64,000 nucleotides of DNA, from contig DPGI01000005.1 in NCBI GenBank assembly GCA_003522085.1, positions 63,044 through 127,043 of the forward strand, read 5' to 3'. Positions within the stretch are counted from its first letter, which is position 1; the number at the start of each line of letters is the position of its first letter. Below, in pieces: positions 1 to 20,190 of the stretch. Position numbers and translations under genes: made by a program. The notes beneath the pieces were generated by a model. That model did not search any database, was not told where the DNA came from, and saw only the letters and a list, made by a program, of their open reading frames with translations. The DNA comes from Clostridiales bacterium. Its GTDB lineage: Bacteria > Bacillota > Clostridia > Christensenellales > UBA1242.

Positions 1-1
1 T

Positions 2-661: not shown

Positions 662-673
662 AAAATAAAAAAA

Positions 674-703
674 GAAAACGAGCAGATTTATGCTCGTTTT
701 TTA
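674..703 (+). terminator. rho-independent terminator of the collagen-like gene
   Basis: Stem acgagca (678-684) pairs with tgctcgt (691-697) around a 6-nt loop. A T-run follows at 698-702 and an A-run precedes the stem. Confidence 0.8.
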
Positions 704-857
704 TTGTTTAAGCATATATAATCATTTGCGGACGGCGAAAGAGAAGAAAAAATTAAAATTTATAATTTTAAAAGGTTGAAATTGTAAGTAAAAACATTTC
801 ACATTTTCAATTTTTTATTTTATAATTAAAGTGTAAGTATAGATAAGGAGAATACGT

Positions 858-2743: not shown

Positions 2744-4358
2744 CAGAGCACTATTCAAACAGTCATGCAAAGCCAATGGCTTAATGTGGGCGATAATAAC
2801 GTTCGCCGTATGCTTTATGCTTGCCTGTGTAATGATGATCGCAGGCGGAGGCAACATTGGCACAATCCGTTCAGGCATAACAAACACAATCATAGAAAGT
2901 TCGGTTGAAGCGCAAGCCAAAACACGTGCGTCAACATATTACAGCATAGTTACTCCGGGATTAAAACAATTTGACGAAACATTTGCGGCAGCATACGCTC
3001 AAAAATACACCGAAATCAAAACAGCTGACCCAAGCGTGCCAGATGAGACAGCATCAGCACAAGCGGGAGCATATGCGCTCAGCACAGGAGTAGGTGTGGT
3101 CAACGTTTATATCAATGACGTTTGCACAAAAAACGGATACGAAGACGGCAGCGTTGAAAAGCAAGAGCTTCAAGGTCTTATGTTTGCGTGCTTTAATCTT
3201 GACATGAATGGCGACGGAACAGCAGATTTCGATTATTTCTATGATGCATATGGAGCAGACGTTAAGCCATACACAACACTACTTTCAACAGTTTCAAGCC
3301 CAAATCGTGACACTGAGCGAAAAGAATATGCCCGCAATTATTGCAGTGTGTTCTTTGCTGGCAATATGGTGAGTGAAGACAACGTTGACAAATTGGTTGT
3401 ACAACTTGAAAAATTTAAAATATCAAAAGAAGGTTATCAAAATCTTACTTACACAAACAAAGCTGGTGAGGAAGTATCAAAATACACAGGCACAAGCGGC
3501 TATTTGTATATTAAAGACCTTGCCACAGACACAATCGTAACACTCCAAGCGCGACTTGATTATGAAATCGCTAAAATCGAAACAACCGACCCAGTCGAAT
3601 ATCAAAAAGAAGTAGCGCGCATCACAAATGAAATCATAGCCGAAAACGGCAAAACATTCCTTTCATCTCTTCCAGAAGATGTGTCGACATCTCTTCAAGA
3701 GGTAGGACAGCTTGATATTTTTGGAATGATAACCGGTTCAGTATATTTCAAAATGGCAGGCTTGTTGCTTCCAATCATCTACATCATCATGGTTTCAAAC
3801 AACTTAATAGCAGGTCAAGTCGATACAGGTTCAATGGCATATGTGCTTTCAACATCAACAAAAAGAAAACAAGTTACCTTCACACAATCAATCTATTTAA
3901 TTCTTTCACTTTTTGTTATGTTTGCGTGCGTAACAATAACGGGAATGGTGTGTCTAGCGTGTCTAAACAGTTCGATGGTTACAGTTTCATATTACGAGCT
4001 CGGCATGCTCAGTCTTGGCGCGTTTATAACACTGTTTGCAATGAGTGGAATCTCATTCTTGGCATCATGCTGGTTCAACCGAAGCAAGCATTCAATGAGT
4101 ATAGGCGGAGGCATCAATATGTTCTTCCTTGTCGCCACAATGCTCGGCTTGTTTGGCAGTAAAGTGCTCCCATCAATCGTGCGTCTCAATTCGCTTAATT
4201 TCTTCAATTATTGCTCAATAATTTCGCTGTTTGACGAAGTTTCAATTTTGGAGGGAACGACAACATTTGCTTGGAAACTTGCCATCTTAGCCGTTATCGG
4301 CATAGTATGCTATATCGTCGGCGCAATCAAGTTTGAAAAGAAAGACTTGCCACTATAA
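2736..4358 (+). CDS. ABC-2 family permease with a large (~300 aa) extracytoplasmic domain
   Basis: One N-terminal TM is followed by a long hydrophilic domain and a C-terminal cluster of ~5 TM helices. The gene is translationally coupled to the two NBD genes, with RBS aaggagg. Confidence 0.7.
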   Translation: MFSRALFKQSCKANGLMWAIITFAVCFMLACVMMIAGGGNIGTIRSGITNTIIESSVEAQAKTRASTYYSIVTPGLKQFDETFAAAYAQKYTEIKTADPSVPDETASAQAGAYALSTGVGVVNVYINDVCTKNGYEDGSVEKQELQGLMFACFNLDMNGDGTADFDYFYDAYGADVKPYTTLLSTVSSPNRDTERKEYARNYCSVFFAGNMVSEDNVDKLVVQLEKFKISKEGYQNLTYTNKAGEEVSKYTGTSGYLYIKDLATDTIVTLQARLDYEIAKIETTDPVEYQKEVARITNEIIAENGKTFLSSLPEDVSTSLQEVGQLDIFGMITGSVYFKMAGLLLPIIYIIMVSNNLIAGQVDTGSMAYVLSTSTKRKQVTFTQSIYLILSLFVMFACVTITGMVCLACLNSSMVTVSYYELGMLSLGAFITLFAMSGISFLASCWFNRSKHSMSIGGGINMFFLVATMLGLFGSKVLPSIVRLNSLNFFNYCSIISLFDEVSILEGTTTFAWKLAILAVIGIVCYIVGAIKFEKKDLPL

Positions 4359-6555: not shown

Positions 6556-6592
6556 ATACACGAACTATCAAAACTAGTCCGTGTATTTTTTT
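6556..6592. terminator. bidirectional hairpin terminator between metG and the (displaced) tRNA-Leu 3' half
   Basis: Arms atacacgaac (6556-6565) and gtccgtgtat (6577-6586) pair at 9/10 positions. The loop is 11 nt. The hairpin is flanked by an A-run and a T-run. Confidence 0.75.
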
Positions 6593-6595
6593 GTG

Positions 6596-6650
6596 TGGTG
6601 CCGGTGGTCGGGGTCGAACCGACACTTGGTTGCCCAAACGAGATTTTGAG
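6596..6650 (-). repeat. truncated copy of the tRNA-Leu(CAA) 3' half (att-like direct repeat, left end of island)
   Basis: These 55 nt are identical to 14603-14657. They cover the CCA end, T arm, variable arm and 3' anticodon stem up to the first anticodon-loop base. No 5' half is present. Confidence 0.9.
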
Positions 6651-6800: not shown

Positions 6801-6830
6801 TTGACAAATCATCATGAAATTAGGTAAAAT
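6801..6830 (+). promoter_or_regulatory. sigma-A-type promoter of the island operon
   Basis: TTGACA (6801-6806), an 18-nt spacer, then TAAAAT (6825-6830), about 30 nt upstream of the first island gene. Confidence 0.55.
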
Positions 6831-6858: not shown

Positions 6859-8133
6859 ATGCGATACAAAGAGGTTAAAGCTTTACAAAATAACATAATA
6901 AAAGATTTTATTGATGATAATAATTTATTCGCAATATTTAAATTGCCAGTAAATATTTTATTTGCTGATAATTTTGTCGCTAATATAAAAAACATGAAAG
7001 ATATTTTTAAACAGAACTGTCTGCGTGAAAATATCTTTTTTTCTTGCAAATGTAATAAAAGTTTTGCCTTCCTTAAAGTGGCTGCTGATTGCGGTTGTGG
7101 TATTGAAGCTTCGTCTAAATTTGAACTTAGAGATGCATTGAAATACACTAAAAAAATAATTGCCACAGGGCCTGGAAAGGACGATGAATATCTTAAATTG
7201 GCGATAGAGAATGAAGTAATAATTTCAGTTGACGACATTGAAGAATTAAAATCAATTGTGAAATTTGATAAACGCGTAAGCGTATTATTACGATGTTCAA
7301 GCAATTGGATAGGAATTCCTAGTCGCTTTGGTATTCAAAAAAATGGAATCGATGATTGCTTAGAATTAATAAAGGATAATCACATTGATTTGTTAGGTTT
7401 TTCTTTTCACATCAATAATTACAATTTAAACGACAGAATTAGAATAGTAAAAGAAATCCTTGATTTAGTTAAAAATAAAAAATTAAGTATTAAAGTTATT
7501 GATATAGGCGGTGGGATTCCTGTAAATTATTGTTCTAAGGAACAGTTCGAGGATTTTATATTAAATAACAAAAAAGAGTTTTACTTTGCTAATAAAAACA
7601 TTAAGAGCTTTTATCCTTATTTTAATAAAGTAGCAGAAAATGAATTTTTAAACAAAATTTTACAGGAAATAAGGAAAGATTTAGGAGACATTGAAATATA
7701 CGCAGAACCTGGTAGGGTTTTGGTTAATAATTGTGGTATCAGTGTTTATAAAGTCGAATATGTGAAAGAAACTCAAGATGGTAATATTGTTGTAGTAAAC
7801 AGTAATATAAACAATTTATCTGAACAGTGGTTTAACACTGATTACCTAATAGAACCCAAATTATATTTAAAAAATCAAACTAACTCGAGGGTTTATTTTG
7901 CTTCTGTGGCAGGTAATTTGTGCTTGGAAAATGATATGGTTACTTGGCGCAAAATTAAATTTTTGCATAAACCTAAATCTGGGGATTTGCTTATATATTA
8001 CAATACAGCAGGTTATCAAATGGATTCCAATGAAAGCATGTTTCATAAAATCCCTTTTGTTGAAAAATATGTTGTCCATAAACAAGATGATATTTATGTG
8101 ATAAGAAAGGATAAAGAATATGATAGGGAATAA
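6859..8133 (+). CDS. PLP-dependent decarboxylase, Orn/DAP/Arg decarboxylase (alanine-racemase fold) family
   Basis: Candidate PLP-lysine motif FFSCKCNKS, glycine loop IDIGGGIP, EPGR, and C-terminal CLENDM, which resembles the active-site Cys region. RBS is gtgagg. Confidence 0.75.
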   Translation: MRYKEVKALQNNIIKDFIDDNNLFAIFKLPVNILFADNFVANIKNMKDIFKQNCLRENIFFSCKCNKSFAFLKVAADCGCGIEASSKFELRDALKYTKKIIATGPGKDDEYLKLAIENEVIISVDDIEELKSIVKFDKRVSVLLRCSSNWIGIPSRFGIQKNGIDDCLELIKDNHIDLLGFSFHINNYNLNDRIRIVKEILDLVKNKKLSIKVIDIGGGIPVNYCSKEQFEDFILNNKKEFYFANKNIKSFYPYFNKVAENEFLNKILQEIRKDLGDIEIYAEPGRVLVNNCGISVYKVEYVKETQDGNIVVVNSNINNLSEQWFNTDYLIEPKLYLKNQTNSRVYFASVAGNLCLENDMVTWRKIKFLHKPKSGDLLIYYNTAGYQMDSNESMFHKIPFVEKYVVHKQDDIYVIRKDKEYDRE

Positions 8134-9115
8134 TATTTTGGATTTAATTGGGCATACCCCTTTATTAAAATTAAACATGAAAATGAACAATTGGAAAATT
8201 TATCTTAAACTTGAAAAGTTTAATCCAGGGCAATCAATGAAAGACAGAATGGCTTTAAATATGATTGAACAAGCAGAAAAACGAGGAGATTTAAAACCAG
8301 GTGGGACGATAATTGAATCATCTTCTGGGAATACGGCTACCGGGTTGGCGATTGTGGCGGCAGTAAAAGGGTATAAGTTCATTGCTGTAGTGGATCATCA
8401 TGCATCAGAGGATAAAATAAAAATTATTAAAGCTTATGGCGGACAAATAGTTATGGTGGGTGATTCAAAAAAAGCAGATGAAGTGGCAGTCGTTGAACGA
8501 GAAAATAAGGCATTGGAACTATCAAAAAAAATCAAGAATTCTTATGTACCAAAGCAACATGAAAATGTCGACAATAGAGGAGCTTACATTGATTCACTTG
8601 CCAAAGAACTAATTGATGAACTTGTGGTAATTGATCTGCTTTATGGTTCAATTGGAACTGGTGGCTCTATATGTGGTACTGCTCTTGGTATGAGAAAATA
8701 TAATTCAAAGTGTAGAATAAATGCTGTTGAACCTGTGGGATCTATTATTTTTGGTGGGAAAGGAGGACCATATTTTCAATCTGGGACAGGGAATCCACCA
8801 GATGCAGAAATTCCACCCATTATTGATTATTCGCTTATTGATAATAATTTTTATGCAAGTGATAAAGAAGCTTTTAATACTTGTAGATATATAGCTAAAA
8901 ACTTCGGCGTTATGTTAGGTGGATCTGGCGGAGGAGTATTATATAAAGCTTTGGAAGATATAAATTCAATGAGTGGCTCAGGCACGGCCGTTGTCATTGT
9001 TTGCGATGGGGGAGAAAAATATTTAGATAGTGTATTCAATGATTGTTGGATGAAACAAAACAATATGCTGGACCCTTCTGTCAATGAAAAATTGAATAAA
9101 TGGTTAAGGAGGTAA
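8120..9115 (+). CDS. PLP-dependent beta-replacement enzyme, cysteine synthase (CysK/SbnA-like) family
   Basis: PLP-lysine motif NPGQSMKDR and SSSGNTATGLA loop, with fold-type II length (331 aa). It overlaps the upstream gene by 14 nt. Confidence 0.8.
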   Translation: MIGNNILDLIGHTPLLKLNMKMNNWKIYLKLEKFNPGQSMKDRMALNMIEQAEKRGDLKPGGTIIESSSGNTATGLAIVAAVKGYKFIAVVDHHASEDKIKIIKAYGGQIVMVGDSKKADEVAVVERENKALELSKKIKNSYVPKQHENVDNRGAYIDSLAKELIDELVVIDLLYGSIGTGGSICGTALGMRKYNSKCRINAVEPVGSIIFGGKGGPYFQSGTGNPPDAEIPPIIDYSLIDNNFYASDKEAFNTCRYIAKNFGVMLGGSGGGVLYKALEDINSMSGSGTAVVIVCDGGEKYLDSVFNDCWMKQNNMLDPSVNEKLNKWLRR

Positions 9116-10248
9116 AGTTGGAACTAAACTCTTGGGAAAAAAAATCATTAAAGAAGTTAACTAAAAAATATATAGATCTTTATGTGGCGTTATCAAAAGA
9201 AAGCAAAAAATGTTTTAGAATTGATTCTCATACCATATTTAATTCAGATACAAAAGAATTAACTCAACAACAAAAAAATAAAATAGTTGATTATTGGCAT
9301 AACTATACAAAAGATTTTGATATTAATTATCATAAATATTACATAGATAAAACTGGTATGTTTGATGTTCGTTTTATTCCAGACGATATTTTTGCGGGAT
9401 ATATAGATCCTTATTTAAACAATAGAGAGATAGAACCGGGAATAGCTGATAAGAATTATTTTGATTTGTTTTTAAAAGGATTCAAAATGCCAAAGACTTA
9501 TGTAAGATTGATAAATGGCATTTATGAAGATGAAAATTATAACATAATCCCCCGTTGTAAAGTTTTAGAAAAATTAACAAGTATAAAAAAATTTGTGGTT
9601 AAACCTAGTACGGCTTCATACGGTGGCAAAAATGTTACTTTTTTTGAAAATGCAACACTTGAAGAAATTGAAAATTTCATAAATATAAATAAAACGAGGA
9701 ATTTAATATTTCAAGAAATTGTGGATCAGCATGAATCAACAGCATCGATTCATCCAAAATCTTTAAATACAATTAGAATTATGACTTTAATAATTGATAA
9801 TGATGTTAAAGTTTTGCCTTGTGCTTTTAGAATGGGGGTTGGGGCGGCAAGAGTCGATAATGCTAGCTTTGGAGGAATATACTGTAAGATTTTTGAAGAT
9901 GGAACCTTATCTGATTTTGCATACGATGCTTTAGGCCACAAATTTTATAAGCATCCAGATGGGAAAGAGTTTTCAAGCGTTAAAATTGATTGCTTAGATA
10001 AAGTAAAAGATTTAGTTAAAAAGGCGGCACAAAGATTTCCTCATTTCAGATTGATTGGTTGGGATATTGGAATTGATAAAGAAGGAGAGCCTATTATTAT
10101 TGAAGCTAATCTTACAATGAGTGGGTTAGACGTGATTGAAACAATATGTGGGCCACTTTTTGGTGACTATACAGATATGGTTTTAAATGAAGTTTTTAAA
10201 AATCCAAAAAAGAAAGAAATTAGTATGGATATTTCACAATATGTTTAG
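9100..10248 (+). CDS. ATP-grasp amidoligase (sugar-transfer-associated/TupA-like ATP-grasp type)
   Basis: Motifs FVVKPSTASYGGKNV, IFQEIV, RVDNASFGGI, and a C-terminal IIEANL catalytic-loop-like motif. An alternative start is TTG 9118, 5 nt after AAGGAGG. Confidence 0.6.
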   Translation: MVKEVKLELNSWEKKSLKKLTKKYIDLYVALSKESKKCFRIDSHTIFNSDTKELTQQQKNKIVDYWHNYTKDFDINYHKYYIDKTGMFDVRFIPDDIFAGYIDPYLNNREIEPGIADKNYFDLFLKGFKMPKTYVRLINGIYEDENYNIIPRCKVLEKLTSIKKFVVKPSTASYGGKNVTFFENATLEEIENFININKTRNLIFQEIVDQHESTASIHPKSLNTIRIMTLIIDNDVKVLPCAFRMGVGAARVDNASFGGIYCKIFEDGTLSDFAYDALGHKFYKHPDGKEFSSVKIDCLDKVKDLVKKAAQRFPHFRLIGWDIGIDKEGEPIIIEANLTMSGLDVIETICGPLFGDYTDMVLNEVFKNPKKKEISMDISQYV

Positions 10249-10257
10249 GAGAAAAAT

Positions 10258-11247
10258 ATGGAAAATAAAGAAGAATACATTTATGCAGGTGTGTCTACCT
10301 TTATGGGCAGCAAAATGATTACTCAAGAAGAAATTAAAAATTATGATATTGTTTTTCTTGGAGTGCCATGTGACTATGGTGCATCTTATAGATTGGGGGC
10401 AAAATATGCGCCACGACAATTAAGAGAATATTCGTTTTGGGACAGGATAAATGGACAAGAATTGTACGATTTAGACCATAATAAATATATCAAAACAAAT
10501 AATTTACGTATTGCAGATTATGGAGATGTGTATGTTTATCCAACTAATCCAAATAAGAATCAAGATGAAATTACAAACACTGTGTATAATATCACTAAAG
10601 AATCTTTTCCTTTGATTTGTGGTGGTGATCATTCAATTACATATGGAAGTTTTAGGGGGTTTTACAGGGCTATTAAAGAACGATTTCCTGATTACGAAGT
10701 TGGAATTATACATTTTGATGCTCACCTAGATGTTGAAAAAGAATACTTAAATATGCCAAATGTATGGCATGGTAACGTTTTCAGAAAATTGATTGAAGAT
10801 GGATTCTTAAAAGGAGAAAACCTTTTTAGCATTGGGCCACGAGGGGTTGTGGATAAGCAGTGGTTTAATTATGAAAAAGAACAAAAAATAAATTTATTTA
10901 CATCAAATCAAGTTAAACAACAAGGTATTGAAAATGTAATCGATAAAATAAAAGAGGTTAATAAGAATAAGAAGATCATATTTTATATATCTTTTGATAT
11001 AGATGCAATAGATATTTCTTATATATTCGGTACGGGAACGCCGCAATGTAATGGATTGTCGCCTTATGAATGCGACAATGCCTTAAGAATGTTGAATGAA
11101 TTAAAAATTGGTGGATTTGATATCGTTGAATTAAATCCAAAGTTGGATCCATCAAATACTGCTTTTGTTATTGCTTGTGAATTAATTTATCATTTTTTAG
11201 CGTTGGGGTATGGAGGTATTAATGGAAAAAATAGCAATATTATTTAA
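10258..11247 (+). CDS. arginase/agmatinase/formimidoylglutamase-family ureohydrolase
   Basis: The Mn-binding motifs of the family are present: GGDHSITYG, HFDAHLD and SFDIDAID. Confidence 0.85.
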   Translation: MENKEEYIYAGVSTFMGSKMITQEEIKNYDIVFLGVPCDYGASYRLGAKYAPRQLREYSFWDRINGQELYDLDHNKYIKTNNLRIADYGDVYVYPTNPNKNQDEITNTVYNITKESFPLICGGDHSITYGSFRGFYRAIKERFPDYEVGIIHFDAHLDVEKEYLNMPNVWHGNVFRKLIEDGFLKGENLFSIGPRGVVDKQWFNYEKEQKINLFTSNQVKQQGIENVIDKIKEVNKNKKIIFYISFDIDAIDISYIFGTGTPQCNGLSPYECDNALRMLNELKIGGFDIVELNPKLDPSNTAFVIACELIYHFLALGYGGINGKNSNII

Positions 11248-12181
11248 TTTAAATCGCCATCAATTTGACTATGAAACGGAATTTGATTCCCCGGTTACCA
11301 TAGAATCAATTTATAATTCTCTAAAAGATAAATATGAAATTAAATTTATAGAAGCGGTAAGGGATTTTTCGTGGATTAAAGAGATTATTGATTTTAATCC
11401 TAATTTAGTATTCAATATTTGCGAGGGTTATTATGGGCCCGCAAGGGAATCTGTTTATGCTGCGATTTTAGAACAGCTTAATCTCAACTATTCCGGTCCT
11501 GACAGTACGAATTTATTAATATGTCATAATAAAATTTTAACAAAAAGATTACTGGAAAATAAAATTTTAGTTCCTAGAGGGTATTGCATCACAAGTATTG
11601 AGCAGTTAAAAAACATCGAATTAAGCTTTCCTTTAATAGTAAAGCTTAATTCAGAAGGATCAAGTTTAGGGATGAGTGAAAAATCAATCGTTAATAACTT
11701 TAAAGAATTATCAGAACAGGTAAATGAGATGATTCAAAAATTTAATAGAGGAATATTAATTGAAGAATTTATTGATGGACAAGATATCAGCATGATTTTT
11801 GTAGAGGGTATTGGTGCCTTGGGGCCATGCGAAATTGATTGCGGTGCAACTTTTTATGATTATGATATGAAATCCATTAAAGATGATACAGTAGACATCA
11901 AAGAGTTAAAAGGTGATTATCAACGTCTTAAAAATATTGTTGATTATGTAGCTAATAGGTTAGATATAAAAGGTTATGCGAAATTGGATTTTAGGATTAA
12001 TGATGGCAACTATTACCTTATAGAGGTTAATTCACAAGTAAGTTTCCATCCCCATGGAGAGTTTATTACTTGTGCAAAAGCTGATGGCTATTCTTTTGAC
12101 CAAATCATAAATCATGTTGTGAATTATGCTTTACGCAATAAAATAAAATATAGTTCTATAGGAATAGGGGGCGACAAATGA
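11222..12181 (+). CDS. D-alanine--D-alanine ligase-like ATP-grasp ligase
   Basis: Ddl-like N-domain (LNYSGPDSTNLLICHNKILTKRLL), LIVKLNSEGSSLGM, and C-terminal YLIEVN. I chose ATG 11222 (GGAGG 5-6 nt upstream); the ORF track starts at 11210. It overlaps the ureohydrolase gene. Confidence 0.75.
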   Translation: MEKIAILFNLNRHQFDYETEFDSPVTIESIYNSLKDKYEIKFIEAVRDFSWIKEIIDFNPNLVFNICEGYYGPARESVYAAILEQLNLNYSGPDSTNLLICHNKILTKRLLENKILVPRGYCITSIEQLKNIELSFPLIVKLNSEGSSLGMSEKSIVNNFKELSEQVNEMIQKFNRGILIEEFIDGQDISMIFVEGIGALGPCEIDCGATFYDYDMKSIKDDTVDIKELKGDYQRLKNIVDYVANRLDIKGYAKLDFRINDGNYYLIEVNSQVSFHPHGEFITCAKADGYSFDQIINHVVNYALRNKIKYSSIGIGGDK

Positions 12182-13251
12182 TAAATGAAATAGTGGATCA
12201 AGAAATTTTAACTACATACAATTATTTGGTGGAAAAAGAATCATTGCTTCCTATTAAAATTTCAAATTTTTATATGAAAAAAGTTGTTGAAGAGTTTCAA
12301 ACAATAGGTGTAAACGGACCATTATTTAGGTCGGTTTTACCAACAAAAAACAGGTGGGAAGTAAAAACTAGCGAAGAAACAAGAGATTATGTGGAAGAAG
12401 TCAAGCATAATCCTATTGAGAATGTCGATTATATAATTCAGAAATATGATAATAGATTAGTGTTTATTATCACCGACGTATGTTTTTCGCATTGCCAATA
12501 TTGTTTTAGATCATATAATTTATCTAAATTTCAGCAAAGCAATTTAAAAGAAACAATAAAAAATAAAGTTAAAACATTAAAAGAATATTTAAGTAAAAAT
12601 CCTTTGATTGAAGAGGTAATTTTTTCGGGAGGAGATCCATTAAGTATAGGATATGCAAATTTAAAATTTGCTTTAGAAGAGCTGAAAGGCTTTAAAATTA
12701 GGATACATACTCGTGCAATAGTTTACAATCCTTTTGTGTTTGATAAAAAAATTATAAAATTATTTAAGAAACATAATATTAGATTGGTATTTCATATTAA
12801 TCATCCATATGAAATATGCAGTGAAGTTGAAAAGATTATAAATAATATAGATCATGCGGGAATTCATATGTATGCTCAATTCCCATTGCTTAGGGGAATA
12901 AATGATCACTATTTAGTTTTAAAAATGCTTTTAGAAAAGATGGACGAGTTGCATATCCGCCCAATTTCAATATTCATTCCAGATCCAATTTCATATAGTG
13001 CGGATTATAGATTATCCTTTAATAGAATTCTTGAAATTATGGATGAATTAAATTGGAAAACAGCTTCTTGGATTAATTCTGTAAGATTTACAATGGATAC
13101 AACAATAGGTAAAGTAAGAAGAGAAAATATAACACAACATGTTGGCAAAAGAATTGTATTATCTAGAGAGGGGAAAAATGTTGATTATTATGATTTAGAT
13201 CAAGGCATCGACAAACCATCGGATGTGAATATCTTATTGTGGAAAAGATAA
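12178..13251 (+). CDS. KamA-family radical-SAM amino acid 2,3-aminomutase (lysine/arginine aminomutase or EpmB-like)
   Basis: CxxxCxxC cluster CFSHCQYCFR preceded by YDNRLVFIITDV, plus GGDPL. At 357 aa it has the short EpmB-like size. It has an ATGA overlap with the upstream gene. Confidence 0.85.
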   Translation: MINEIVDQEILTTYNYLVEKESLLPIKISNFYMKKVVEEFQTIGVNGPLFRSVLPTKNRWEVKTSEETRDYVEEVKHNPIENVDYIIQKYDNRLVFIITDVCFSHCQYCFRSYNLSKFQQSNLKETIKNKVKTLKEYLSKNPLIEEVIFSGGDPLSIGYANLKFALEELKGFKIRIHTRAIVYNPFVFDKKIIKLFKKHNIRLVFHINHPYEICSEVEKIINNIDHAGIHMYAQFPLLRGINDHYLVLKMLLEKMDELHIRPISIFIPDPISYSADYRLSFNRILEIMDELNWKTASWINSVRFTMDTTIGKVRRENITQHVGKRIVLSREGKNVDYYDLDQGIDKPSDVNILLWKR

Positions 13252-13252
13252 T

Positions 13253-13281
13253 TTGACTTTTTGAAAGATAAAAATTATAAT
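13253..13281 (+). promoter_or_regulatory. near-consensus sigma-A promoter in front of the rsgA-like gene
   Basis: TTGACT (13253-13258), a 17-nt spacer, then TATAAT (13276-13281). RBS aaaggaggg follows. Confidence 0.65.
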
Positions 13282-13298
13282 GTAAAAAGGAGGGCATT

Positions 13299-14363
13299 AT
13301 GCCACATTATGAAAGTTATCAAAGTTTTCAAACGAAAAAAAGTATAAATAAAAAAAATAAAGCTAAAGAAGTTTCTGCGAATAAAAGCATAGACGAGGCC
13401 TTTGTCATATCTAGAAAAAAATTAGGCGATATTGATTTGCCTATTGTAATAGAAACAACATACAAAGAAGCGAAGGTGTTATATAAAGGTGAAATAATAA
13501 CGGTGTATGGGATGCAACGAAATATTCCATGCAATCAATTAGTTTTTCCAGGTGATTATGTAGTTTTAGATGGCGACAATAAAAAAATTACGAATGTACT
13601 GGAACGTTCTACTATTCTGTCGCGTGATCACAAGGATAGAGCGAGAAGATCAAATGTCGTATTAAATAAAGTTGTTGCAACTAATATTGATACTGCTGTT
13701 ATCGTAGTTTCAGCATACTCACCACCATTGCATCCTAAATTTATAGATAGATATCTAATGATTTTGCAAAATTGTGGAATTGAACCGATTATTTGTTTGA
13801 ATAAGGCGGATTTAAAAACTAAACAAGACGAAGAAGTTTTAGATATTTATAGACATTTGAACATTCCAGTTGTAGAAACTTCTGCATTAAATAACGAGGG
13901 CGTCGAAAATTTAAAAAATTATTTGTATAACAAAAGGGCTATTTTTGTTGGGCATAGCGGAGTCGGTAAATCTACATTAACAAATGCTTTAATGAATTTT
14001 AATGAAATTAAGACTGGAGATGTGGGCAATAAAAGCTTAAGAGGACGACACACAACAACGTCATCAAAATTTTATTATTGGAACGACCATTCATCCATTA
14101 TTGACACTCCTGGTATAAGGGCTTTAGATGTGTCAAGTTTTCAACCATCAGAAGTACAATACTACTTTCCAGAGTTTCTAAATTATCTCAATTGTAAATA
14201 TCGTTCTTGCGATCATGTAGAGGTTAAAACAGAAGATTGTGGAGTTAAAACTGCTGTTAAAGATGGCTTAATAAAGTCGAGCAGGTATGAAAGCTATGTT
14301 AGAATTATGGAAGATTTAACACAAAATGAAAAAAAAACAAAAAATGATGAGCTCTGTATATAG
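13299..14363 (+). CDS. rsgA: RsgA/YjeQ-like circularly permuted ribosome-biogenesis GTPase (island-borne paralogue)
   Basis: OB-like N-domain, then permuted G motifs NKADL (G4), GHSGVGKST (G1) and DTPG (G3), then a C-terminal zinc motif CKYRSCDH...C. It has a K-rich N-terminal extension and AT-rich codon usage like the rest of the island. Confidence 0.8.
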   Translation: MPHYESYQSFQTKKSINKKNKAKEVSANKSIDEAFVISRKKLGDIDLPIVIETTYKEAKVLYKGEIITVYGMQRNIPCNQLVFPGDYVVLDGDNKKITNVLERSTILSRDHKDRARRSNVVLNKVVATNIDTAVIVVSAYSPPLHPKFIDRYLMILQNCGIEPIICLNKADLKTKQDEEVLDIYRHLNIPVVETSALNNEGVENLKNYLYNKRAIFVGHSGVGKSTLTNALMNFNEIKTGDVGNKSLRGRHTTTSSKFYYWNDHSSIIDTPGIRALDVSSFQPSEVQYYFPEFLNYLNCKYRSCDHVEVKTEDCGVKTAVKDGLIKSSRYESYVRIMEDLTQNEKKTKNDELCI

Positions 14364-14556: not shown

Positions 14557-14599
14557 ATACACGAACACTAAGTTTGTCTTAATTGTCCGTGTATTTTTT
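14557..14599. terminator. second copy of the metG/tRNA-Leu hairpin (same arms, different loop)
   Basis: Arms atacacgaac (14557-14566) and gtccgtgtat (14585-14594) are identical to 6556-6565 and 6577-6586. The 18-nt loop is unrelated. A T-run follows. Confidence 0.65.
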
Positions 14600-14602
14600 G
14601 TT

Positions 14603-14688
14603 TGGTGCCGGTGGTCGGGGTCGAACCGACACTTGGTTGCCCAAACGAGATTTTGAGTCTCGCGCGTCTGCCATTCCGCCACACCGGC
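14603..14688 (-). tRNA. tRNA-Leu (anticodon CAA), type II, CCA encoded
   Basis: 86 nt. Acceptor GCCGGTG/CACCGGC, 3-bp D stem GCG/CGC, anticodon stem CGAGA/TCTCG with loop CTCAAAA, long variable arm (TTGG-GCAA-CCAA), T arm GTCGG-TTCGACC-CCGAC, and discriminator A plus CCA. Confidence 0.95.
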
Positions 14689-14898: not shown

Positions 14899-14927
14899 TT
14901 GACTATTAAAATATCCAATTTTATAAT
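14899..14927 (+). promoter_or_regulatory. sigma-A-type promoter of the sigma-region-4-like gene
   Basis: TTGACT (14899-14904), a 17-nt spacer, then TATAAT (14922-14927). Confidence 0.6.
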
Positions 14928-14960: not shown

Positions 14961-15467
14961 ATGCAAAATCACATTTGGGGCAAAACACTTCTTTCAGCTT
15001 ATCGTTTTTTAGAGCGTATTGCAGGAGCAATAGACAAAATAATTGAGAAAAAAGCACTTGCTTCTTCTTGGGCAACTTCGTTCAGCAGTGTGGCAAACAG
15101 CACTTTAGAGCTTGCTGACCAAATCATCGAACTTTCCGAGCGCAAAGTAAAGTTAATCAATATCAAATTGTTGATTGAAAAAGCGTTAAAAAAGCTTGAT
15201 AAAAAAGACGCGAAAATTTTAATTTGCAAGTATTTTGATAAGATGGGACCTGAAGAAATTATCGCTTCGTTTGGCCTTTCGCGCCGCTCATATTTCAGAC
15301 GCATACAAGATGCCGAATCAAGTTTTGAGTCATCGTGCGCGTCGCTTGGTTTTCCGATATCTCGTCTGCAAACTTATCTTGACAGCGAAGAATGGATTAA
15401 GCAAATTGCAGCTACATTTCAAGCAAAACAAGCCAAAGAAAAAAAGGGCAGCGCCCTTTCAATTTAA
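14961..15467 (+). CDS. sigma-70 region-4-like HTH protein (phage late-gene activator, ArpU/RinA-like)
   Basis: The C-terminal half LDKKDAKILICKYFDKMGPEEIIASFGLSRRSYFRRIQDAESSF has the region-4 HTH pattern. The gene sits just upstream of a terminase large subunit gene, as late activators do in siphophages. Confidence 0.45.
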   Translation: MQNHIWGKTLLSAYRFLERIAGAIDKIIEKKALASSWATSFSSVANSTLELADQIIELSERKVKLINIKLLIEKALKKLDKKDAKILICKYFDKMGPEEIIASFGLSRRSYFRRIQDAESSFESSCASLGFPISRLQTYLDSEEWIKQIAATFQAKQAKEKKGSALSI

Positions 15468-16262
15468 GTCATCTTCATTAAATTCATAATAATCTCTTCC
15501 TCTTTTAAGTGGTGGAGATTTTTCTTTTCTGCCTTTGGCAAAAAGTCTGCGTTTTTTCGGACTTAAAATCAAATACAAAATCACAAGGCAAGGCAGCGAA
15601 ACACCCAAAATAATCATTGCTTTTGACGTATCGCTCAGTCCACCGCCGCTAGGCAAATCGCCCGAAAAGTTAAGTGGAGTTGTTATTTCGGGAAAGTATT
15701 CCATGTTTTCGCTTGCAAGCGTCAAATTGTCACAAAAATATGAAAACGCATAACCTTTGATTTCTTCGCCGCCGTTAGAAAGCGAGCAATAATACCATTT
15801 ATTTGTTGATTTCGGAAACAGTTCGTCGCCATAGCAAGTTCCATAAAGCACAACATTTTCTTGCAAAAAACTCAGTTTTCCACACTTTGCTGCGCCGGCC
15901 ATTGGTGCTGAAAACACGTCAAGGCCGTTTTGTGCAAACGCCCGAAAACTTTGACTGGCATATGGCGTCGAAGGCACGCCGTCCATAGGCGTCACTTCAT
16001 CTTTTTTAACATAGCCTTGAAGCGAAGCATACTTGGCGTAATAAAAGTCATCTTTTTCGTTTATAAGCAGCACGAAATACGAGTTTGGCAAGATAAAAAG
16101 TTTACTCTCTTCGCTGTCGTTAGGGCTTGAGTAAAAATAGATATTTTCGCTTAAAACCTTTGCAAAATAAGTCTTGTTTTGACCGCTCACAGCAAAAGTT
16201 GTGCCCGTTTGCGAAGGCCACAAAATGAATAAAAATGAAAATAGAACAATCAACAATTTCAT
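15459..16262 (-). CDS. secreted/membrane-anchored protein with two bacterial SH3-like domains
   Basis: N-terminal signal peptide, two SH3b-like segments, and a C-terminal TM followed by a basic tail. Its 3' end overlaps the convergent gene by 9 nt. Confidence 0.5.
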   Translation of the reverse strand: MKLLIVLFSFLFILWPSQTGTTFAVSGQNKTYFAKVLSENIYFYSSPNDSEESKLFILPNSYFVLLINEKDDFYYAKYASLQGYVKKDEVTPMDGVPSTPYASQSFRAFAQNGLDVFSAPMAGAAKCGKLSFLQENVVLYGTCYGDELFPKSTNKWYYCSLSNGGEEIKGYAFSYFCDNLTLASENMEYFPEITTPLNFSGDLPSGGGLSDTSKAMIILGVSLPCLVILYLILSPKKRRLFAKGRKEKSPPLKRGRDYYEFNEDDLN

Positions 16263-16325
16263 AGCAAAATTATATCGTCAAAAAATGAAAATTTAAAATA
16301 AAAACATGTCATAAAGGGGGGAGAG

Positions 16326-17762
16326 ATGTCGCAAATAATAGAAAAGATTAAAGCGATTGATGCCGAAATAAAACGCCGCGAAGAAAGTGATAACTTGCTT
16401 CGCTACAACACCGGCGATAAGATACATTTAAAACAGGTTGCATTTCATAAATGCACAAAACGCAATCGTTGGGTCTTCGGTGGAAATCGCAGCGGCAAAA
16501 GCGAGTGCGGTGCGGCCGAAGTTGTCTATCTTGCCCGCGGCAATCATCCATATAAGCCCAACAAAAAAGAAGGCGTCGAAGGCTGGGTTGTGTCACTTTC
16601 ACGTCAAGTCCAAAGAGATGTTGCACAGCAAAAAATACTGCATTATCTAAATCCAAAGTGCATCGAAAAAATAGTCATGACATCTGGCCGAGCCGACAGC
16701 CCCGAAAGCGGTATAATTGATTTCATTTTAGTGCGCAATGAGTTTGGAAATCTCAGCAAAATTGGTTTTAAAAGTTGCGACCAAACTCGCGCAAAATTTC
16801 AAGGTTCATCGCTTGATTTTGTGTGGTTTGATGAAGAGCCGCCATTCGATATTTATCGCGAATGCCAGATGCGTGTGCTTGATAAACAAGGCGAAATATT
16901 TGGAACGATGACCCCGCTAAAAGGGCTGACATGGGTTTATAAAGAAATCTATCTAAACGCAAATAATTCGCCAGAAGTATGGCATGAAAGTATGTCTTGG
17001 CACGACAATCCCTTTCTTTCAAAAACCGAAATTGACTTCTTTTCGTCGTGCCTGCCCGAAGATGAACTCGCCAGCCGTCGTGACGGTAAATTTACTGCTC
17101 TTGGCGGTCAAGTTTATCCTGAGTTTGACGAAAACGTGCACATCATTGAGCCCTTTGATGTTCCGCTTGAATGGCAAGACAACATTTCAATCGACCCAGG
17201 TCTAAACAACCCGCTTTCCGCGCATTGGTATGCAGTTGATTTTGATGGAAACGTCTATGTCGTCGCCGAGCACTTTGAAGCTAAAAAAGACGTTGTTTAT
17301 CACGCTGAAAGACTCAAACAAATTTCTCAGCGCTTATCGTGGAAAAGAGAGCGCAACGGAATGCTTGGCGCACTTATCGACAGCGCAGCAACTCAGCGCA
17401 CGTTAGCGGCAACGAAAAGCGTTGTCGAACTGTTTTATGACAATGGCATCTTGGTCAATCCGCGAGTCAACAAAGATATGTTCAGCGGCATTTCAACAGT
17501 CAAACGCTATTTAAAAGACGGCGAAGGCAAGCCGCATTTGTTTATATTCAAAAATTGCACAAATTTAATTCGAGAGTTTAAATCATACTGGTGGGGCGAT
17601 CAGGATCTACCAATAAAAAATGATGACCACAGTTTGGACGAACTTAGATATTATTTAATGTCAAAACCAAAAATACCTCAAAAAAATGAAATAAAAAATG
17701 AATTATATGAAGAAAAAATGCGTTTAATGCGCAAATTAAAGGCGAAAAAAACAAGATTTTGA
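16326..17762 (+). CDS. phage terminase large subunit (Terminase_6/PBSX-like), orphan
   Basis: Walker A GGNRSGKS, Walker B LDFVWFDEE, and a C-terminal nuclease-type region (ISIDPG, DDHSLDELRYYLM). RBS is ggggggag. Confidence 0.8.
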   Translation: MSQIIEKIKAIDAEIKRREESDNLLRYNTGDKIHLKQVAFHKCTKRNRWVFGGNRSGKSECGAAEVVYLARGNHPYKPNKKEGVEGWVVSLSRQVQRDVAQQKILHYLNPKCIEKIVMTSGRADSPESGIIDFILVRNEFGNLSKIGFKSCDQTRAKFQGSSLDFVWFDEEPPFDIYRECQMRVLDKQGEIFGTMTPLKGLTWVYKEIYLNANNSPEVWHESMSWHDNPFLSKTEIDFFSSCLPEDELASRRDGKFTALGGQVYPEFDENVHIIEPFDVPLEWQDNISIDPGLNNPLSAHWYAVDFDGNVYVVAEHFEAKKDVVYHAERLKQISQRLSWKRERNGMLGALIDSAATQRTLAATKSVVELFYDNGILVNPRVNKDMFSGISTVKRYLKDGEGKPHLFIFKNCTNLIREFKSYWWGDQDLPIKNDDHSLDELRYYLMSKPKIPQKNEIKNELYEEKMRLMRKLKAKKTRF

Positions 17763-17835
17763 AATATTTTTTACATTTGTTTGGAAAAATAAAATAAATA
17801 TGATAAATTTAAATAGTAAGGAAAATATAAAAAAT

Positions 17836-20190
17836 ATGAAAAAAATATATTCATTTTTAATTTGTTTTTTACTTGCAATTTTGGCTCTCACTCCGCTTGT
17901 TACAAAAAGCGGTGAAAATTTAGATACCATTTATGCTGATGGCGAAAATCAAATCACCGTTTCGTCGGTAAGTGAACTTCGCGATATTGCCACAAAAGTC
18001 AATTCGGGCGAAGATACATATTCAGGCAAAACAATTCTTCTTACCAAAGACTTATTAGATGTCGGAACATGGACGCCAATCGGCCAAAAAGGAGCACCTT
18101 TCAAAGGCGTGTTTGACGGGCAGGGGCATACAATCTCAGGCATATCAGTCACAGACGGCCAAACCTATCAAGGTCTGTTTGGTTATGCAAGCGGCGCAAC
18201 AATCAAAAACGTGTGCGTAAAAGATTTTACATCAACCAACCTTTACAATGCTGACGGAGTTTATGTTGGCTCAATTTTGGGCGCAGGCATTCAAAACACA
18301 ACAATCGAAAGTTGCGAAGTTGATTCATCAGCATCAACCGATGCCGCATATGAAATCGTTTGCAATTCAGCAGTCGGCGGCGTAGTCGGCTATCTCGACG
18401 GTGGAAGAGTAACCAACACAAGTTCATTTATGAACGTCTATGCAACTTACAATCTCCGCAATGAATACACAATAAAAATCGGTGGTTTTGCAGGCAGAGT
18501 CGAAAACAGCATTTTTGTAAAAGCGTCATCATTTGGCGGCGTTAAAATTGAATATTCAGGCGAAGAAGCTCCAACATTAGATTCAAAATTTTATGTTGGC
18601 GGATTTGCCGGCGAAATATCTGGAGACAGCACACAAATGTTTGACGGAGTTGTAGGGGGAACCATCTCAGCCATCAATAATTATCCAGACACACAAACAA
18701 TGGTTGTGGGCAGTGTTGCAGGCGCGCTCATCGACGCTCCAACAACAGGCAAAATGACCTCAATCGCATACACACAAACTCGTGACGCATTCGGACAAAA
18801 TAACAGCGGTTATTTGACTGCAAACAATTATATTATGCAGGTTTCTGAAGGCTTAATCTCAGCGCAAGCATTCTATCAATCAGATTCATACACTTATGAG
18901 ATGAACGGCGCACAATACACCTTTGTTTGGAGCCAAGGCACCAATAAATGGGATTTCGACAGCGTATGGGTAATGGCAAATGATAAATTGCGCTTGCAAA
19001 TTTTCCAATTCTTTGACCTTTCACTTGCTGACTTTTTGGACAATGACGGCTTGCTTGAAAGAACAAGCGCAGCGCCAACGCCAGCCGACCCATCAAGAAA
19101 ACCATATGCTTACAACGAAATAGTAAACATGTCAGTAAAATTCAAAAACAGCGAAAACAACAAATATTATGACATATCTGACATTTTACTTAACGGACAA
19201 AGCCTTAACTTATCTGAATTTATCGAAACTACGTCACCAGATTATGGCACAGTTAAAACATCAAAAACAGGAGAAATTACTTTCTATAAAGACGGCGACA
19301 CCTTTCATTTGGATGTAAAAGCAACAAACTCAACCGAAGGCAAGTATTCGTTCAGATTAAAAGCGATTGAATATAAAGTTTACATCATGTCTGACGAAAA
19401 TGGGGCTGTGCGTTACAGTGGTTCATCAACACTTGCGCAAGTTCTCACTCGCGATATGTCAGCGTCAAGCAATCAAATTTCAATCGAAGCAGTAAGCAAC
19501 AAAAAATACAAGTTCAATGGCTGGTCAATCTATTATGAAGACTCAACAGCAGGCGACAAAGAATATGACCAAAAACTCTGGAAAAAGCAATCAATTTCGC
19601 TCCCAGCAACAAACCCACTTGCAATCAAATTTGCAAACGGCGCATACAATCAAAACTTCTTGTTGATGGCAAATTTTGCGTTTGACCCATGCACATTTAG
19701 TTTTGCATTTGACTCGTCAATGATCGCAAAAATCACAGTTAACAACACCGATGTTGTTTCATCTTCGGGCGAAACAGTGACGCTCGACAAAAACGAAGCG
19801 GTTTCAATTAAAGTTTTTGTAAAAGAAGAAGTTGAATTTGACAGTGCAAACCTTGAAAAAGTAATCAAATCATTCTTCTCGCGTGACACACTTTCACTCA
19901 AACTCGACACCTATAAAGACTCAATCGATCCAACGTTAACGGTCTATGAATACACATTCTCAACCTCATCGCTTGATTATGGTTCAGCATCAACTTTCAA
20001 TTTCTCGCTCACAACAAAAATAGCCGAAAAAAAAGAAGACCCAAACACAACACTTTACATTGTGCTAGGCAGTGTAGGCGGCGCACTTTTGCTTGCAGGA
20101 ATTGGCATAACAATTTGGCTTGTAATGCGTAAAAAAGCTTATGGGAAAACAGCTGCGCCAAAAGACGACTATAAAAACTATTACTATTAA
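17836..20190 (+). CDS. GLUG-motif repeat surface protein with C-terminal TM anchor
   Basis: Signal peptide MKKIYSFLICFLLAILALTPLV; the ORF track start at 17800 is an alternative. Repeated GLFG/VGG(V/F)(V/A)G motifs, and a C-terminal TM plus KK-rich tail. Confidence 0.55.
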   Translation: MKKIYSFLICFLLAILALTPLVTKSGENLDTIYADGENQITVSSVSELRDIATKVNSGEDTYSGKTILLTKDLLDVGTWTPIGQKGAPFKGVFDGQGHTISGISVTDGQTYQGLFGYASGATIKNVCVKDFTSTNLYNADGVYVGSILGAGIQNTTIESCEVDSSASTDAAYEIVCNSAVGGVVGYLDGGRVTNTSSFMNVYATYNLRNEYTIKIGGFAGRVENSIFVKASSFGGVKIEYSGEEAPTLDSKFYVGGFAGEISGDSTQMFDGVVGGTISAINNYPDTQTMVVGSVAGALIDAPTTGKMTSIAYTQTRDAFGQNNSGYLTANNYIMQVSEGLISAQAFYQSDSYTYEMNGAQYTFVWSQGTNKWDFDSVWVMANDKLRLQIFQFFDLSLADFLDNDGLLERTSAAPTPADPSRKPYAYNEIVNMSVKFKNSENNKYYDISDILLNGQSLNLSEFIETTSPDYGTVKTSKTGEITFYKDGDTFHLDVKATNSTEGKYSFRLKAIEYKVYIMSDENGAVRYSGSSTLAQVLTRDMSASSNQISIEAVSNKKYKFNGWSIYYEDSTAGDKEYDQKLWKKQSISLPATNPLAIKFANGAYNQNFLLMANFAFDPCTFSFAFDSSMIAKITVNNTDVVSSSGETVTLDKNEAVSIKVFVKEEVEFDSANLEKVIKSFFSRDTLSLKLDTYKDSIDPTLTVYEYTFSTSSLDYGSASTFNFSLTTKIAEKKEDPNTTLYIVLGSVGGALLLAGIGITIWLVMRKKAYGKTAAPKDDYKNYYY

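Follow-up and report, generated by a model that had tools for sequence, protein, structure and literature searches.

The 64,000-nucleotide stretch of contig DPGI01000005.1 analysed here (Clostridiales bacterium assembly GCA_003522085.1, positions 63,044 to 127,043 of the forward strand; hereafter the window) contains an AT-rich island whose last gene encodes a protein of the RsgA (YjeQ) family of GTPases, which act as a checkpoint in assembly of the 30S ribosomal subunit. Our main finding is that this RsgA is invariably linked to, and co-inherited with, six enzyme genes that precede it and form with it a mobile biosynthetic cassette. Counting the window and the loci L005 and L007 (labels of the form L### and P#### denote the loci and proteins used in the comparison), all 21 distinct complete cassettes end in this type of RsgA. 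The function that we favour for the protein, while rating it slightly short of an even chance, is ribosome-directed immunity against an amine-rich product that the enzymes would make independently of a non-ribosomal peptide synthetase (NRPS).

Linkage of the cassette RsgA to six enzyme genes

The RsgA copies at least 73% identical to that of the window (P0001, P0004 and P0010) all follow the same six genes, within three unrelated flanks. Linkage was also tested in reverse, by using aligned homologues of the cassette's marker gene, an ATP-grasp ligase of the ATPgrasp_ST family, for a scan of one genome per species. Every locus with a marker at least 55% identical carries the cassette, and the 16 of these loci that reach its 3' end all finish with this RsgA, the seven remaining loci being cut by contig ends. 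L072, L080 and the divergent, expanded L159, in which the marker is 49% identical, also end in this RsgA. Marker homologues of at least 48% identity are all located in the same cassette, and those of less than 45% identity occur in other contexts, with none of the six partners. Variants of gene order, with the ATP-grasp gene in first place (L033, L034 and L072) or with a rearrangement (L159), still close with the KamA-like gene and RsgA. The scan returned no marker homologue above 66% identity, so that none of the species representatives yielded a near-identical copy of the window cassette. L027 was considered as a cassette lacking RsgA and rejected, as its contig ends within a three-gene insertion that L044 carries before the Ddl-like gene.

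A scan of Joint Genome Institute (JGI) metagenomes gave 80 loci, only two of which hold members of the cassette clade, too few to quantify the fraction of orphan copies; the others provide a negative control. None of these 78 ordinary rsgA loci (at most 42% identical) has a cassette gene within 10 kb, save for an unrelated PALP homologue in L081 (33% identical, about 6 kb away). Neighbour-joining (NJ) trees built from RsgA and from a concatenation of the six enzymes largely agree in their main groupings. Because of the linkage in 21 of 21 cassettes, the largely congruent trees and the 78 ordinary loci that lack the cassette, RsgA has been inherited with the six enzymes since the common ancestor of the cassette, as a fixed component of a seven-gene unit. 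An earlier note on this DNA had listed a passenger gene among its interpretations, and had proposed co-occurrence in other genomes as a check. The same three observations speak against the former, and homologous operons, where complete, always carry this clade of RsgA. That the gene is a passenger, or the host's ordinary rsgA standing beside the operon by chance, would agree with its passing the general TIGR00157 model and with its public annotation as ordinary RsgA. However, it lies inside an insert of foreign GC content flanked by attachment (att) repeats, is just 32-34% identical to the ordinary copy of L005, and reaches 218 bits against a cutoff of 360 for the E. coli-type equivalog, and we accord this explanation next to no probability.

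The cassette RsgA protein, its relatives and its promoter

By every sequence and fold criterion tested, the window gene encodes a member of the RsgA family, and it is neither the E. coli equivalog nor an ordinary Firmicute cpgA. The earlier description of a complete RsgA/YjeQ-type protein with a permuted G4-G1-G3 order and a Cys/His zinc motif agrees with the hidden Markov model (HMM) scores and with the positions of the motifs. The protein scores 198.9 bits against TIGR00157 (cutoff 100) and 175.4 bits against Pfam RsgA_GTPase (cutoff 30); the best full-length model is the E. coli-type equivalog PRK12288, which aligns with residues 18-348 at 217.7 bits, under its cutoff of 360. NKADL (residues 168-172) precedes GHSGVGKST (218-226), GRHTTT (249-254) and DTPG (269-272). 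The zinc motif reads C299-KYRS-C304-D-H306-VEVKTED-C314, with a His-to-Cys spacing of seven residues and not the five of the family definition, Cx(F/Y)xxCxHxx(E/D)xxC (PMC9032327).

The layout is that of RsgA: a basic helix at the N-terminus is followed by an OB barrel, then by a circularly permuted GTPase domain, and the C-terminal domain is of the zinc-binding type. The OB domain named in the earlier note is not matched in the window protein by Pfam RsgA_N, but is supported by the AlphaFold2 model (predicted local distance difference test score, pLDDT, 78.8; predicted template modelling score, pTM, 0.76), in which a basic helix (residues 8-27) is followed by a beta-barrel (49-112, pLDDT mostly 82-93), the GTPase domain and C-terminal helices. 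It is also supported by Foldseek, which returned 30S-bound E. coli RsgA (7boi_W) as the top PDB match (E = 5.6e-23, 317 columns) and aligned 305-317 columns on full-length RsgA structures. The basic N-terminal extension is likewise real: its first 25 or so residues carry the clade-conserved sequence MPHYxxYxSFxTKKSxxKKxRAKE, and MPHYxxYxSFxTKKS and PPLHPKFIDRYLM offer search motifs for the clade.

Among 35 aligned clade members the G4, G1, G2 and G3 motifs (NKxDL, GxSGVGKS, GRHTTT and DTPG) are invariant, as are C299, C304, H306, C314, H251, T253/T254, D150 and R329. With reference to the E. coli structure, H251 corresponds to the catalytic switch-1 residue His248, T253 to the G2 residue Thr250, T254 to the A1408-contacting Thr251, and D150/R329 to the Asp142-Arg325 coupling pair, while I273, immediately after DTPG, keeps the hydrophobic switch-2 position (Val270 in E. 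coli, in place of Gln) (PMC5499641). These conserved residues suggest that the cassette protein is an active GTPase that binds the 30S subunit.

The long form of RsgA/YjeQ from E. coli and Salmonella (about 350 amino acids) resembles the cassette protein in its three domains and basic N-terminal extension, and gives the top matches both in fold and in a PDB sequence search (154-156 bits for Salmonella and E. coli RsgA, above 128 for B. subtilis YloQ and 95 for S. aureus RsgA). The switch-1 His, the G2 Thr, the hydrophobic residue after DxPG, the Asp142/Arg325 pair and the zinc ligands of E. coli RsgA are all conserved in the cassette protein. In contrast, the zinc loop of the latter is two residues longer (H-x7-C against H-x5-C), Leu245 is replaced by Arg or Lys, the MPHYxxYxSFxTKKS motif is its own and its score stays below the PRK12288 cutoff. 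Furthermore, E. coli RsgA is encoded by a lone chromosomal gene, whereas the cassette RsgA is found on a mobile unit with six enzymes.

A nucleotide-sensing regulator, in which the GTPase would bind GTP or (p)ppGpp and adjust the pathway to the translational or stringent state of the cell instead of protecting the ribosome, would be consistent with the fully conserved GTPase pocket and with the reported binding of (p)ppGpp by RsgA proteins (PMC8579695, PMC5845004). We regard this as highly improbable: nothing specific is in its favour, conservation of the OB domain, the zinc domain and the 30S-coupled residues follows that of RsgA on the ribosome, and the orphan copies described below would have nothing to regulate.

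The ordinary Firmicute RsgA (CpgA/YloQ) belongs to the same TIGR00157 family and is encoded in a prkC-rsgA-rpe neighbourhood. The window gene is not in this synteny; it follows the KamA-like gene in the att-flanked island, and no second rsgA is present within the 64-kb window. On the contig of L005, however, a cassette copy (84% identical to that of the window) lies 8 kb from an ordinary rsgA-rpe pair, the two RsgA proteins being 32% identical. This ordinary copy is short (284 amino acids under translation table 11), lacks the N-terminal extension and has a different gene neighbourhood. It scores best on the proteins of T. maritima, A. aeolicus, B. subtilis and S. aureus and worst on that of E. 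coli, whereas the cassette copy shows the reverse, with its best scores on E. coli and Salmonella. The NJ tree, the phylogenetic check suggested in the earlier note, places the ordinary L005 copy with B. subtilis and S. aureus RsgA and the cassette copy apart from them; the cassette copies cluster tightly as a single clade within a broad radiation of RsgA-like proteins that have a long N-terminus, and are not grouped with ordinary Firmicute RsgA. The ordinary rsgA of L005 (L005:19262-20272) is recorded as 336 amino acids; since translation with table 11 stops after 284, the recorded product runs past a stop codon and on into the first part of rpe.

Members of the clade are also found with none of the enzymes nearby, in L010, L011 (a 1.38-Mb contig), L070 and L079. 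The first three branch from within the cassette clade, at two or more points of the tree, in which L079 is not included. Contexts sampled starting from RsgA comprised five that are cassette-linked and these four that stand alone. The nearest outgroup protein, the RsgA-like P0242 (47% identical), is located in an unusual cluster of translation-related duplicates and acetyltransferases (L073:1-15139), where it follows genes for a RimK-like ATP-grasp protein, two tandem LeuRS-like proteins, TyrRS, a MetRS-like protein and a small deaminase, and precedes a PBECR3 nuclease-like gene and three GNATs.

In the window the KamA-like gene ends at 13251, and direct reading of the 47-nt gap before the RsgA start codon confirms the promoter-like site and the strong ribosome-binding site that had been noted there. 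A sigma-70 match of at least 11 of 12 positions has a probability of 0.0011 in a random 60 nt of this composition. Five such sites occur between 6300 and 15200, against 0.75 expected; the looser class of at least 9 of 12 is not enriched (43 against 50.8 in shuffles). As a caveat, the leader would be only about 11 nt long, since the -10 element ends just 17 nt before the ATG. Comparison settles the case for a probable promoter of RsgA's own, which recurs across lineages: 11 of 18 loci (the window and 10 more) have either a match of at least 11 of 12 or an extended -10 element, TGnTAnAAT, upstream of RsgA. Near-consensus or perfect TTGACA-17-TATAAT sites are found in the window, L007, L022 and L005 (in the last inside the preceding gene), and TGnTAnAAT is present at -32 to -54 of RsgA in L014, L015, L018, L025, L032, L044 and L080, with a background of 0.19 per kb of cassette coding DNA. 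Among the seven loci that lack such a promoter, RsgA abuts the upstream gene in L013, L034 and L072, a 36-nt gap is present in L033, and a small open reading frame (ORF) lies just upstream in L021, L023 and L024. This ORF (109-149 amino acids) was considered as a candidate GNAT resistance enzyme; its best match was to Acetyltransf_1 (E = 0.003, one member), and it does not resemble the genuine GNATs encoded close to L010 and L073. Another promoter-like site (TTGCCA-16-TATAAT, 11 of 12) lies within the KamA-like gene at 12492-12519 (+).

The integrative unit, its carriers and its enzymes

The low-GC island of the window is an 8.0-kb site-specific insertion into a tRNA gene, with only seven genes and no integrase of its own, because a 74-nt direct repeat (97% identical; start-to-start spacing 8007-8008 nt), which includes the 3' 55 nt of tRNA-Leu(CAA), brackets exactly the seven genes (Table 1). 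These repeats place the island status claimed earlier on a footing beyond the evidence then given. The seven genes are co-directional and span 6859-14363 (+). As the earlier note had remarked, the RsgA-type gene is as AT-rich as the rest of the island (GC content 0.317, against 0.277-0.352 for the other six genes), the remaining window having a GC content of about 0.40. Given the near-identical att repeats and the foreign GC content, the host would predate the window's copy of RsgA. An Rfam scan of the island (E ≤ 1) detected the tRNA alone, and no riboswitch or leader.

Table 1. Coordinates of the island, its genes and its putative signals, numbered from the first nucleotide of the window
Feature	Position	Strand	Details and evidence
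Left att repeat	6577..6650	.	Partial copy of the tRNA-Leu 3' end, plus 18 nt beyond
Operon promoter-like site, TTGACA-18-TAAAAT	6801..6830	+	11/12 match; 29 nt before the first ATG
Fold-III PLP (pyridoxal 5'-phosphate) decarboxylase, Orn/DAP/Arg decarboxylase family	6859..8133	+	424 aa; Orn_Arg_deC_N 94 bits; best NCBIfam model lysA, 127 bits, under cutoff 298
Fold-II PLP beta-replacement enzyme, CysK/CBS/SbnA-like	8120..9115	+	331 aa; PALP 194 bits; SbnA family 255 bits, under cutoff 350
ATP-grasp ligase, ATPgrasp_ST family (cassette marker gene)	9100..10248	+	382 aa; PF14397 133 bits
Ureohydrolase, agmatinase/guanidinobutyrase/proclavaminate amidinohydrolase-like	10258..11247	+	329 aa; Pfam Arginase 241 bits; agmatinase models under cutoffs; PDB matches
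Second ATP-grasp ligase, D-Ala-D-Ala-ligase-like	11210..12181	+	323 aa; Dala_Dala_lig_C 87 bits; Ddl models 127 bits, under cutoff 243
KamA-family radical-SAM 2,3-aminomutase	12178..13251	+	357 aa; TIGR00238 154 bits, EpmB 150, Lys/Glu/Arg aminomutase models 116-124, all under cutoffs; PDB 2a5h, E = 6e-24
Internal promoter-like site, TTGACT-17-TATAAT	13253..13281	+	11/12 match; -35 at 13253-13258, -10 at 13276-13281
Ribosome-binding site, AAGGAGGG (contains GGAGG)	13287..13294	+	4 nt before the ATG; read from the sequence
Cassette-type RsgA-family GTPase	13299..14363	+	354 aa; ATG start; Pfam, TIGR00157, motifs, AlphaFold2/Foldseek
Right att repeat	14585..14657	.	Overlaps the 3' part of the intact tRNA-Leu gene
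tRNA-Leu(CAA), integration target	14603..14688	-	ARAGORN; Rfam tRNA 56.6 bits; 3' end faces the island

Directly past the tRNA-Leu gene (14961-20190) lie three phage-like genes, perhaps left behind by a phage or satellite that used this tRNA hotspot as well. They encode a 168-amino-acid DUF1492/RinA-like sigma-r4 protein, a large terminase subunit (Terminase_6N, 478 amino acids) and a 796-amino-acid protein with no Pfam match, and a promoter-like site of at least 11 of 12 stands beside them (14899-14927). Two whole contigs from independent short-read assemblies, L002 (8014 bp) and L003 (8010 bp), correspond to the island unit between the att repeats and have ends that overlap by 30 nt; they could be an excised circle, or a repeat-induced loop of the assembly graph (k-1 = 30). 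In the sibling contig of L001, which is 232 kb long and 99-100% identical to the window, the CysK/SbnA-like gene (4823-5817; window 8120-9115) is called as two ORFs of 163 amino acids each and RsgA is intact, which reflects either biosynthetic decay in that strain or an assembly error.

Signs of mobility recur in the other carriers. A perfect 48-nt repeat brackets the cassette of L007, next to a tRNA-Gln gene, and downstream of the cassette of L005 are genes for MobL, an excisionase-type helix-turn-helix protein and an integrase, and a tRNA-Lys gene. Serine recombinases follow the cassette in L013 and L159, and among 59 flanking ORFs from 14 loci the serine and tyrosine recombinases are the sole recurrent families, with no recurrent transporter. 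According to record titles, the hosts are uncultured gut or rumen Bacilli, 'Tenericutes', Erysipelotrichaceae, Clostridia, Ca. Onthoplasma and Ca. Nomurabacteria, and the cassette has a patchy distribution among related metagenome-assembled genomes (MAGs). Its GC content is 0.26-0.30 nearly everywhere, and the window and the Nomurabacteria contig are the only cases where it differs from that of the flanks. Among the viral contigs of IMG/VR there was no clade member and just two weak, partial RsgA matches, so that the cassette is not phage-borne there.

Two neighbourhoods are of a different kind. In L072, from a spore-former, the cassette is wedged between an S13-S11-S4-rpoA-L17 operon (1-3347) and Asp23/NusB genes (11348-13030), core ribosome-related surroundings with no obvious mobile element. 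Directly upstream of the expanded cassette of L159, and co-directional with it (L159:1691-5706), are genes for a NUDIX protein, an APH-family kinase, a histidine phosphatase, a HAD hydrolase, two GNATs and an ASCH protein; enzymes that modify aminoglycosides and tuberactinomycins typically belong to the APH and GNAT families.

A different function could be that of a dedicated 30S assembly or checkpoint factor for a beneficial polyamine-like cation, for example in the stabilisation of ribosomes or nucleic acids in reduced-genome gut bacteria, where RsgA would adapt late 30S maturation and neither toxicity nor immunity would be involved. A decarboxylase together with an agmatinase-like ureohydrolase is the classical pair leading from arginine to putrescine. 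The lack of a linked exporter and the resident look of the cassette in most carriers, where its GC content equals that of the flanks, are consistent with such a factor, and stand-alone copies in core-like neighbourhoods (ftsZ ... rnhB in L070) could serve general assembly. This explanation seems to us decidedly unlikely, as the unit is carried on att-flanked or recombinase-bearing elements with a patchy occurrence among related MAGs, L005 retains an ordinary rsgA alongside, and the need for a metabolite-specific assembly GTPase in all 21 cassettes would go unexplained.

The families of the six enzymes (Table 1) allow the reasonable inference that they would make a small, nitrogen- and amine-rich cationic pseudopeptide or polyamine-like conjugate by a route that is neither ribosomal nor NRPS-dependent. 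PDB matches of the CysK/SbnA-like enzyme include CBS, CysK, SbnA and O-ureido-L-serine synthase (DcsD, 143 bits). The L-2,3-diaminopropionate pathway of SbnA/SbnB is nevertheless different: the cassette enzyme remains under the SbnA cutoff, and HMM scans found no SbnB or ornithine cyclodeaminase homologue in the cassette. Variant cassettes carry additional genes, for a radical-SAM/SPASM-like protein, a second ATP-grasp ligase, a second decarboxylase or ureohydrolase, or a small Cys-rich protein. An anti-phage defence system was considered and dropped, since a PADLOC scan of the seven proteins gave just weak, partial-domain matches to generic radical-SAM and P-loop models (E between 1e-5 and 1e-7), which we treat as noise. 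The cassette is unmatched by the defence-system models of PADLOC, by the RNA elements of Rfam or by published descriptions in the literature searched.

Homologues of the marker ligase show two further arrangements. P0234 (504 amino acids, on a 468,816-bp contig) is 63% identical over 68% of the query and has a match to Seryl_tRNA_N (PF02403), which represents a fusion or a coiled-coil artefact. In L161 and L162 (10001-11071), an ATPgrasp_ST homologue of 46-47% identity lies between prophage tail-fibre and holin/endolysin genes, with no other cassette genes there.

The principal rival to immunity, which we consider unlikely, is a module for modification of the ribosome or of a translation factor, a possibility that the earlier note had also raised. 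The enzymes would build a beta-amino-acid or polyamine group, an ATP-grasp enzyme would ligate it to a 30S component, a translation factor or the GTPase, and RsgA would deliver, position or quality-control the modified subunit. ATP-grasp enzymes are known as protein ligases, and RimK acts on S6. The cassette resembles the systems for beta-lysylation of EF-P (EpmA/EpmB) and for modification of archaeal aIF5A via agmatine in possessing a KamA/EpmB-like radical-SAM enzyme, which scores about as well with the EpmB model as with the family model (150 and 154 bits), together with a decarboxylase and an agmatinase-type enzyme; in archaea an arginine decarboxylase and an agmatinase homologue are reported to take part in the modification of aIF5A (PMC5178350). 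A modification module is also favoured by the unusually conserved N-terminal motif that the GTPase carries, by the position of the L072 cassette after a ribosomal protein operon and by the lack of an exporter, which fits an intracellular end point. However, that neighbourhood is found in one locus only, and the cassette has no deoxyhypusine synthase, no nearby efp or aIF5A gene and no ribosomal-protein gene, with two ATP-grasp ligases in place of an EpmA-type enzyme. HMM scans of the seven proteins and inspection of the flanks revealed no EpmA (class II LysRS-like) ligase or efp neighbourhood, and the EpmB score of 150 bits falls short of a cutoff of 369. Moreover, four stand-alone copies occur without the partner enzymes, three of them nested in the cassette clade, a modification module does not need a separate promoter for the GTPase, and integrative elements that cross phyla would be unusual for a housekeeping modification.

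A possible role in ribosome-directed immunity

In the immunity reading, the six enzymes would assemble a small amine-rich compound that acts on the small ribosomal subunit, and the RsgA paralogue, transcribed from its own promoter, would be made independently of them. Like RsgA, it would bind the 30S subunit on the decoding-centre face (h44/h18/h45), and its 30S-stimulated hydrolysis of GTP would keep the small subunits of the producer working despite the product. To this end it could displace or occlude the compound, or take the place of an ordinary RsgA put out of action by it. Retention of the RsgA gene alone would give a cell immunity without production. The top of h44 is clamped by RsgA at A1492/A1493, and contact with h44/h45/h24 turns on GTP hydrolysis, a 30S-dependent activity that streptomycin blocks (PMC5499641; PMC9032327). 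The pattern would be that of immunity or target protection, because the cassette RsgA keeps the coupling elements, has its own promoter, is never separated from the enzymes in complete cassettes, coexists with an ordinary copy in L005 and survives as orphans.

The earlier note had put forward ribosome-directed self-protection, with streptothricins as an analogy. We favour the first part, while regarding it as unproven, on account of the recurrent promoter, the ordinary copy of L005, the nested orphans, the conserved 30S-coupled residues and the mobility of the unit. The streptothricin/beta-lysine analogy, in contrast, finds no support: no streptothricin-type genes and no exporter are linked to the cassette, and HMM scores do not assign the aminomutase to a substrate.

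Several known systems offer partial parallels. Tet(M) and HflXr are ribosome-protection or rescue GTPases that confer antibiotic resistance. Like Tet(M)/Tet(O), HflXr and, by analogy, the ARE-ABCF ATPases, the cassette RsgA is a paralogue of a ribosome-associated NTPase on mobile DNA, on the L005 contig alongside an ordinary copy, and these proteins are the functional model for our proposal. It differs from them in coming from an assembly-checkpoint family and not from relatives of EF-G or HflX, in being tied to a producer cassette and not to resistance islands, and in that its role in resistance is hypothetical.

Self-resistance by a duplicated housekeeping gene (ARTS/Psi-footprinting) is exemplified by DcsI, the D-Ala-D-Ala ligase of the D-cycloserine cluster. 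That cluster also combines an arginase homologue, a CysK homologue (DcsD, the O-ureido-L-serine synthase found above as a match of the cassette's CysK/SbnA-like enzyme) and an ATP-grasp enzyme. The cassette resembles such cases in the location of RsgA beside biosynthetic genes (21 of 21), in a foreign phylogeny, and in a duplication seen on the L005 contig. Transfer is indicated by the separate clade, the island GC content of 0.30 against 0.40, the att repeats, and the spread over MAGs of Bacilli, Clostridia and Ca. Nomurabacteria. Unlike these examples, the cassette is not from an actinomycete, has no exporter, and adds a KamA-type aminomutase and a fold-III decarboxylase. Duplicated translation genes, rsgA included, serve as indicators of self-resistance in producers of protein-synthesis inhibitors, and rsgA is among the duplicates listed for one such producer (PMC9290621).

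With regard to the product, the KamA-family aminomutase and the CysK/SbnA-like PLP enzyme of the cassette hint at beta-amino-acid and diamino-acid units. As no more than an analogy, a lysine 2,3-aminomutase and an SbnA/CysK-type enzyme also occur in the pathways to tuberactinomycins and streptothricins, which target the ribosome. The cassette differs from these pathways in having no NRPS, SbnB/VioK partner, streptolidine or sugar genes, and ligation in it would be by ATP-grasp enzymes.

A number of points weigh against immunity. Toxicity of the product and its action on the ribosome are both assumptions of this reading. All six enzymes are strong matches at the superfamily level but fall under every curated equivalog cutoff, and a PDB sequence search yielded no solved relative of the marker ATP-grasp ligase, so that no specific product structure is claimed. 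In none of the loci examined is an exporter or regulator linked to the cassette. Independent expression of RsgA is not universal, as the gene abuts its upstream neighbour and has no promoter in L013, L034 and L072. Coexistence with an ordinary rsgA is seen on one contig only, that of L005, and genomes with a stand-alone copy might have no other rsgA. Model bacteria can do without RsgA, which makes it an unlikely primary drug target. The hosts include reduced-genome Bacilli and a candidate-phylum bacterium, in which a physiological, polyamine-like role is also plausible. Finally, the literature searched contains neither a resistance phenotype for any RsgA paralogue nor a description of one as a resistance factor; no paper was found on RsgA together with both an aminomutase and ATP-grasp, nor on the trio of aminomutase, ATP-grasp and agmatinase.

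In its fullest form the proposal of immunity is somewhat more doubtful: in the cassette RsgA, a 30S assembly-checkpoint GTPase would for the first time have given rise to a ribosome-protection factor, guarding producers and orphan carriers against a new class of small-subunit inhibitor, of beta-amino-acid or polyamine type and assembled by ATP-grasp enzymes. Uncultured Bacilli, Clostridia and candidate-phylum bacteria of gut and rumen would make this inhibitor, and the pair would spread as an 8-kb integrative cassette. If immunity is the correct reading, uncultured gut anaerobes would make an undescribed translation inhibitor with neither an NRPS nor a polyketide synthase, and a new resistance mechanism based on an RsgA paralogue would already be circulating in gut communities, on mobile elements and as orphan genes. 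Whatever the function, a 30S checkpoint GTPase that is co-inherited with six small-molecule enzymes across phyla ties ribosome maturation to a metabolite or a modification in a concrete way that can be tested.

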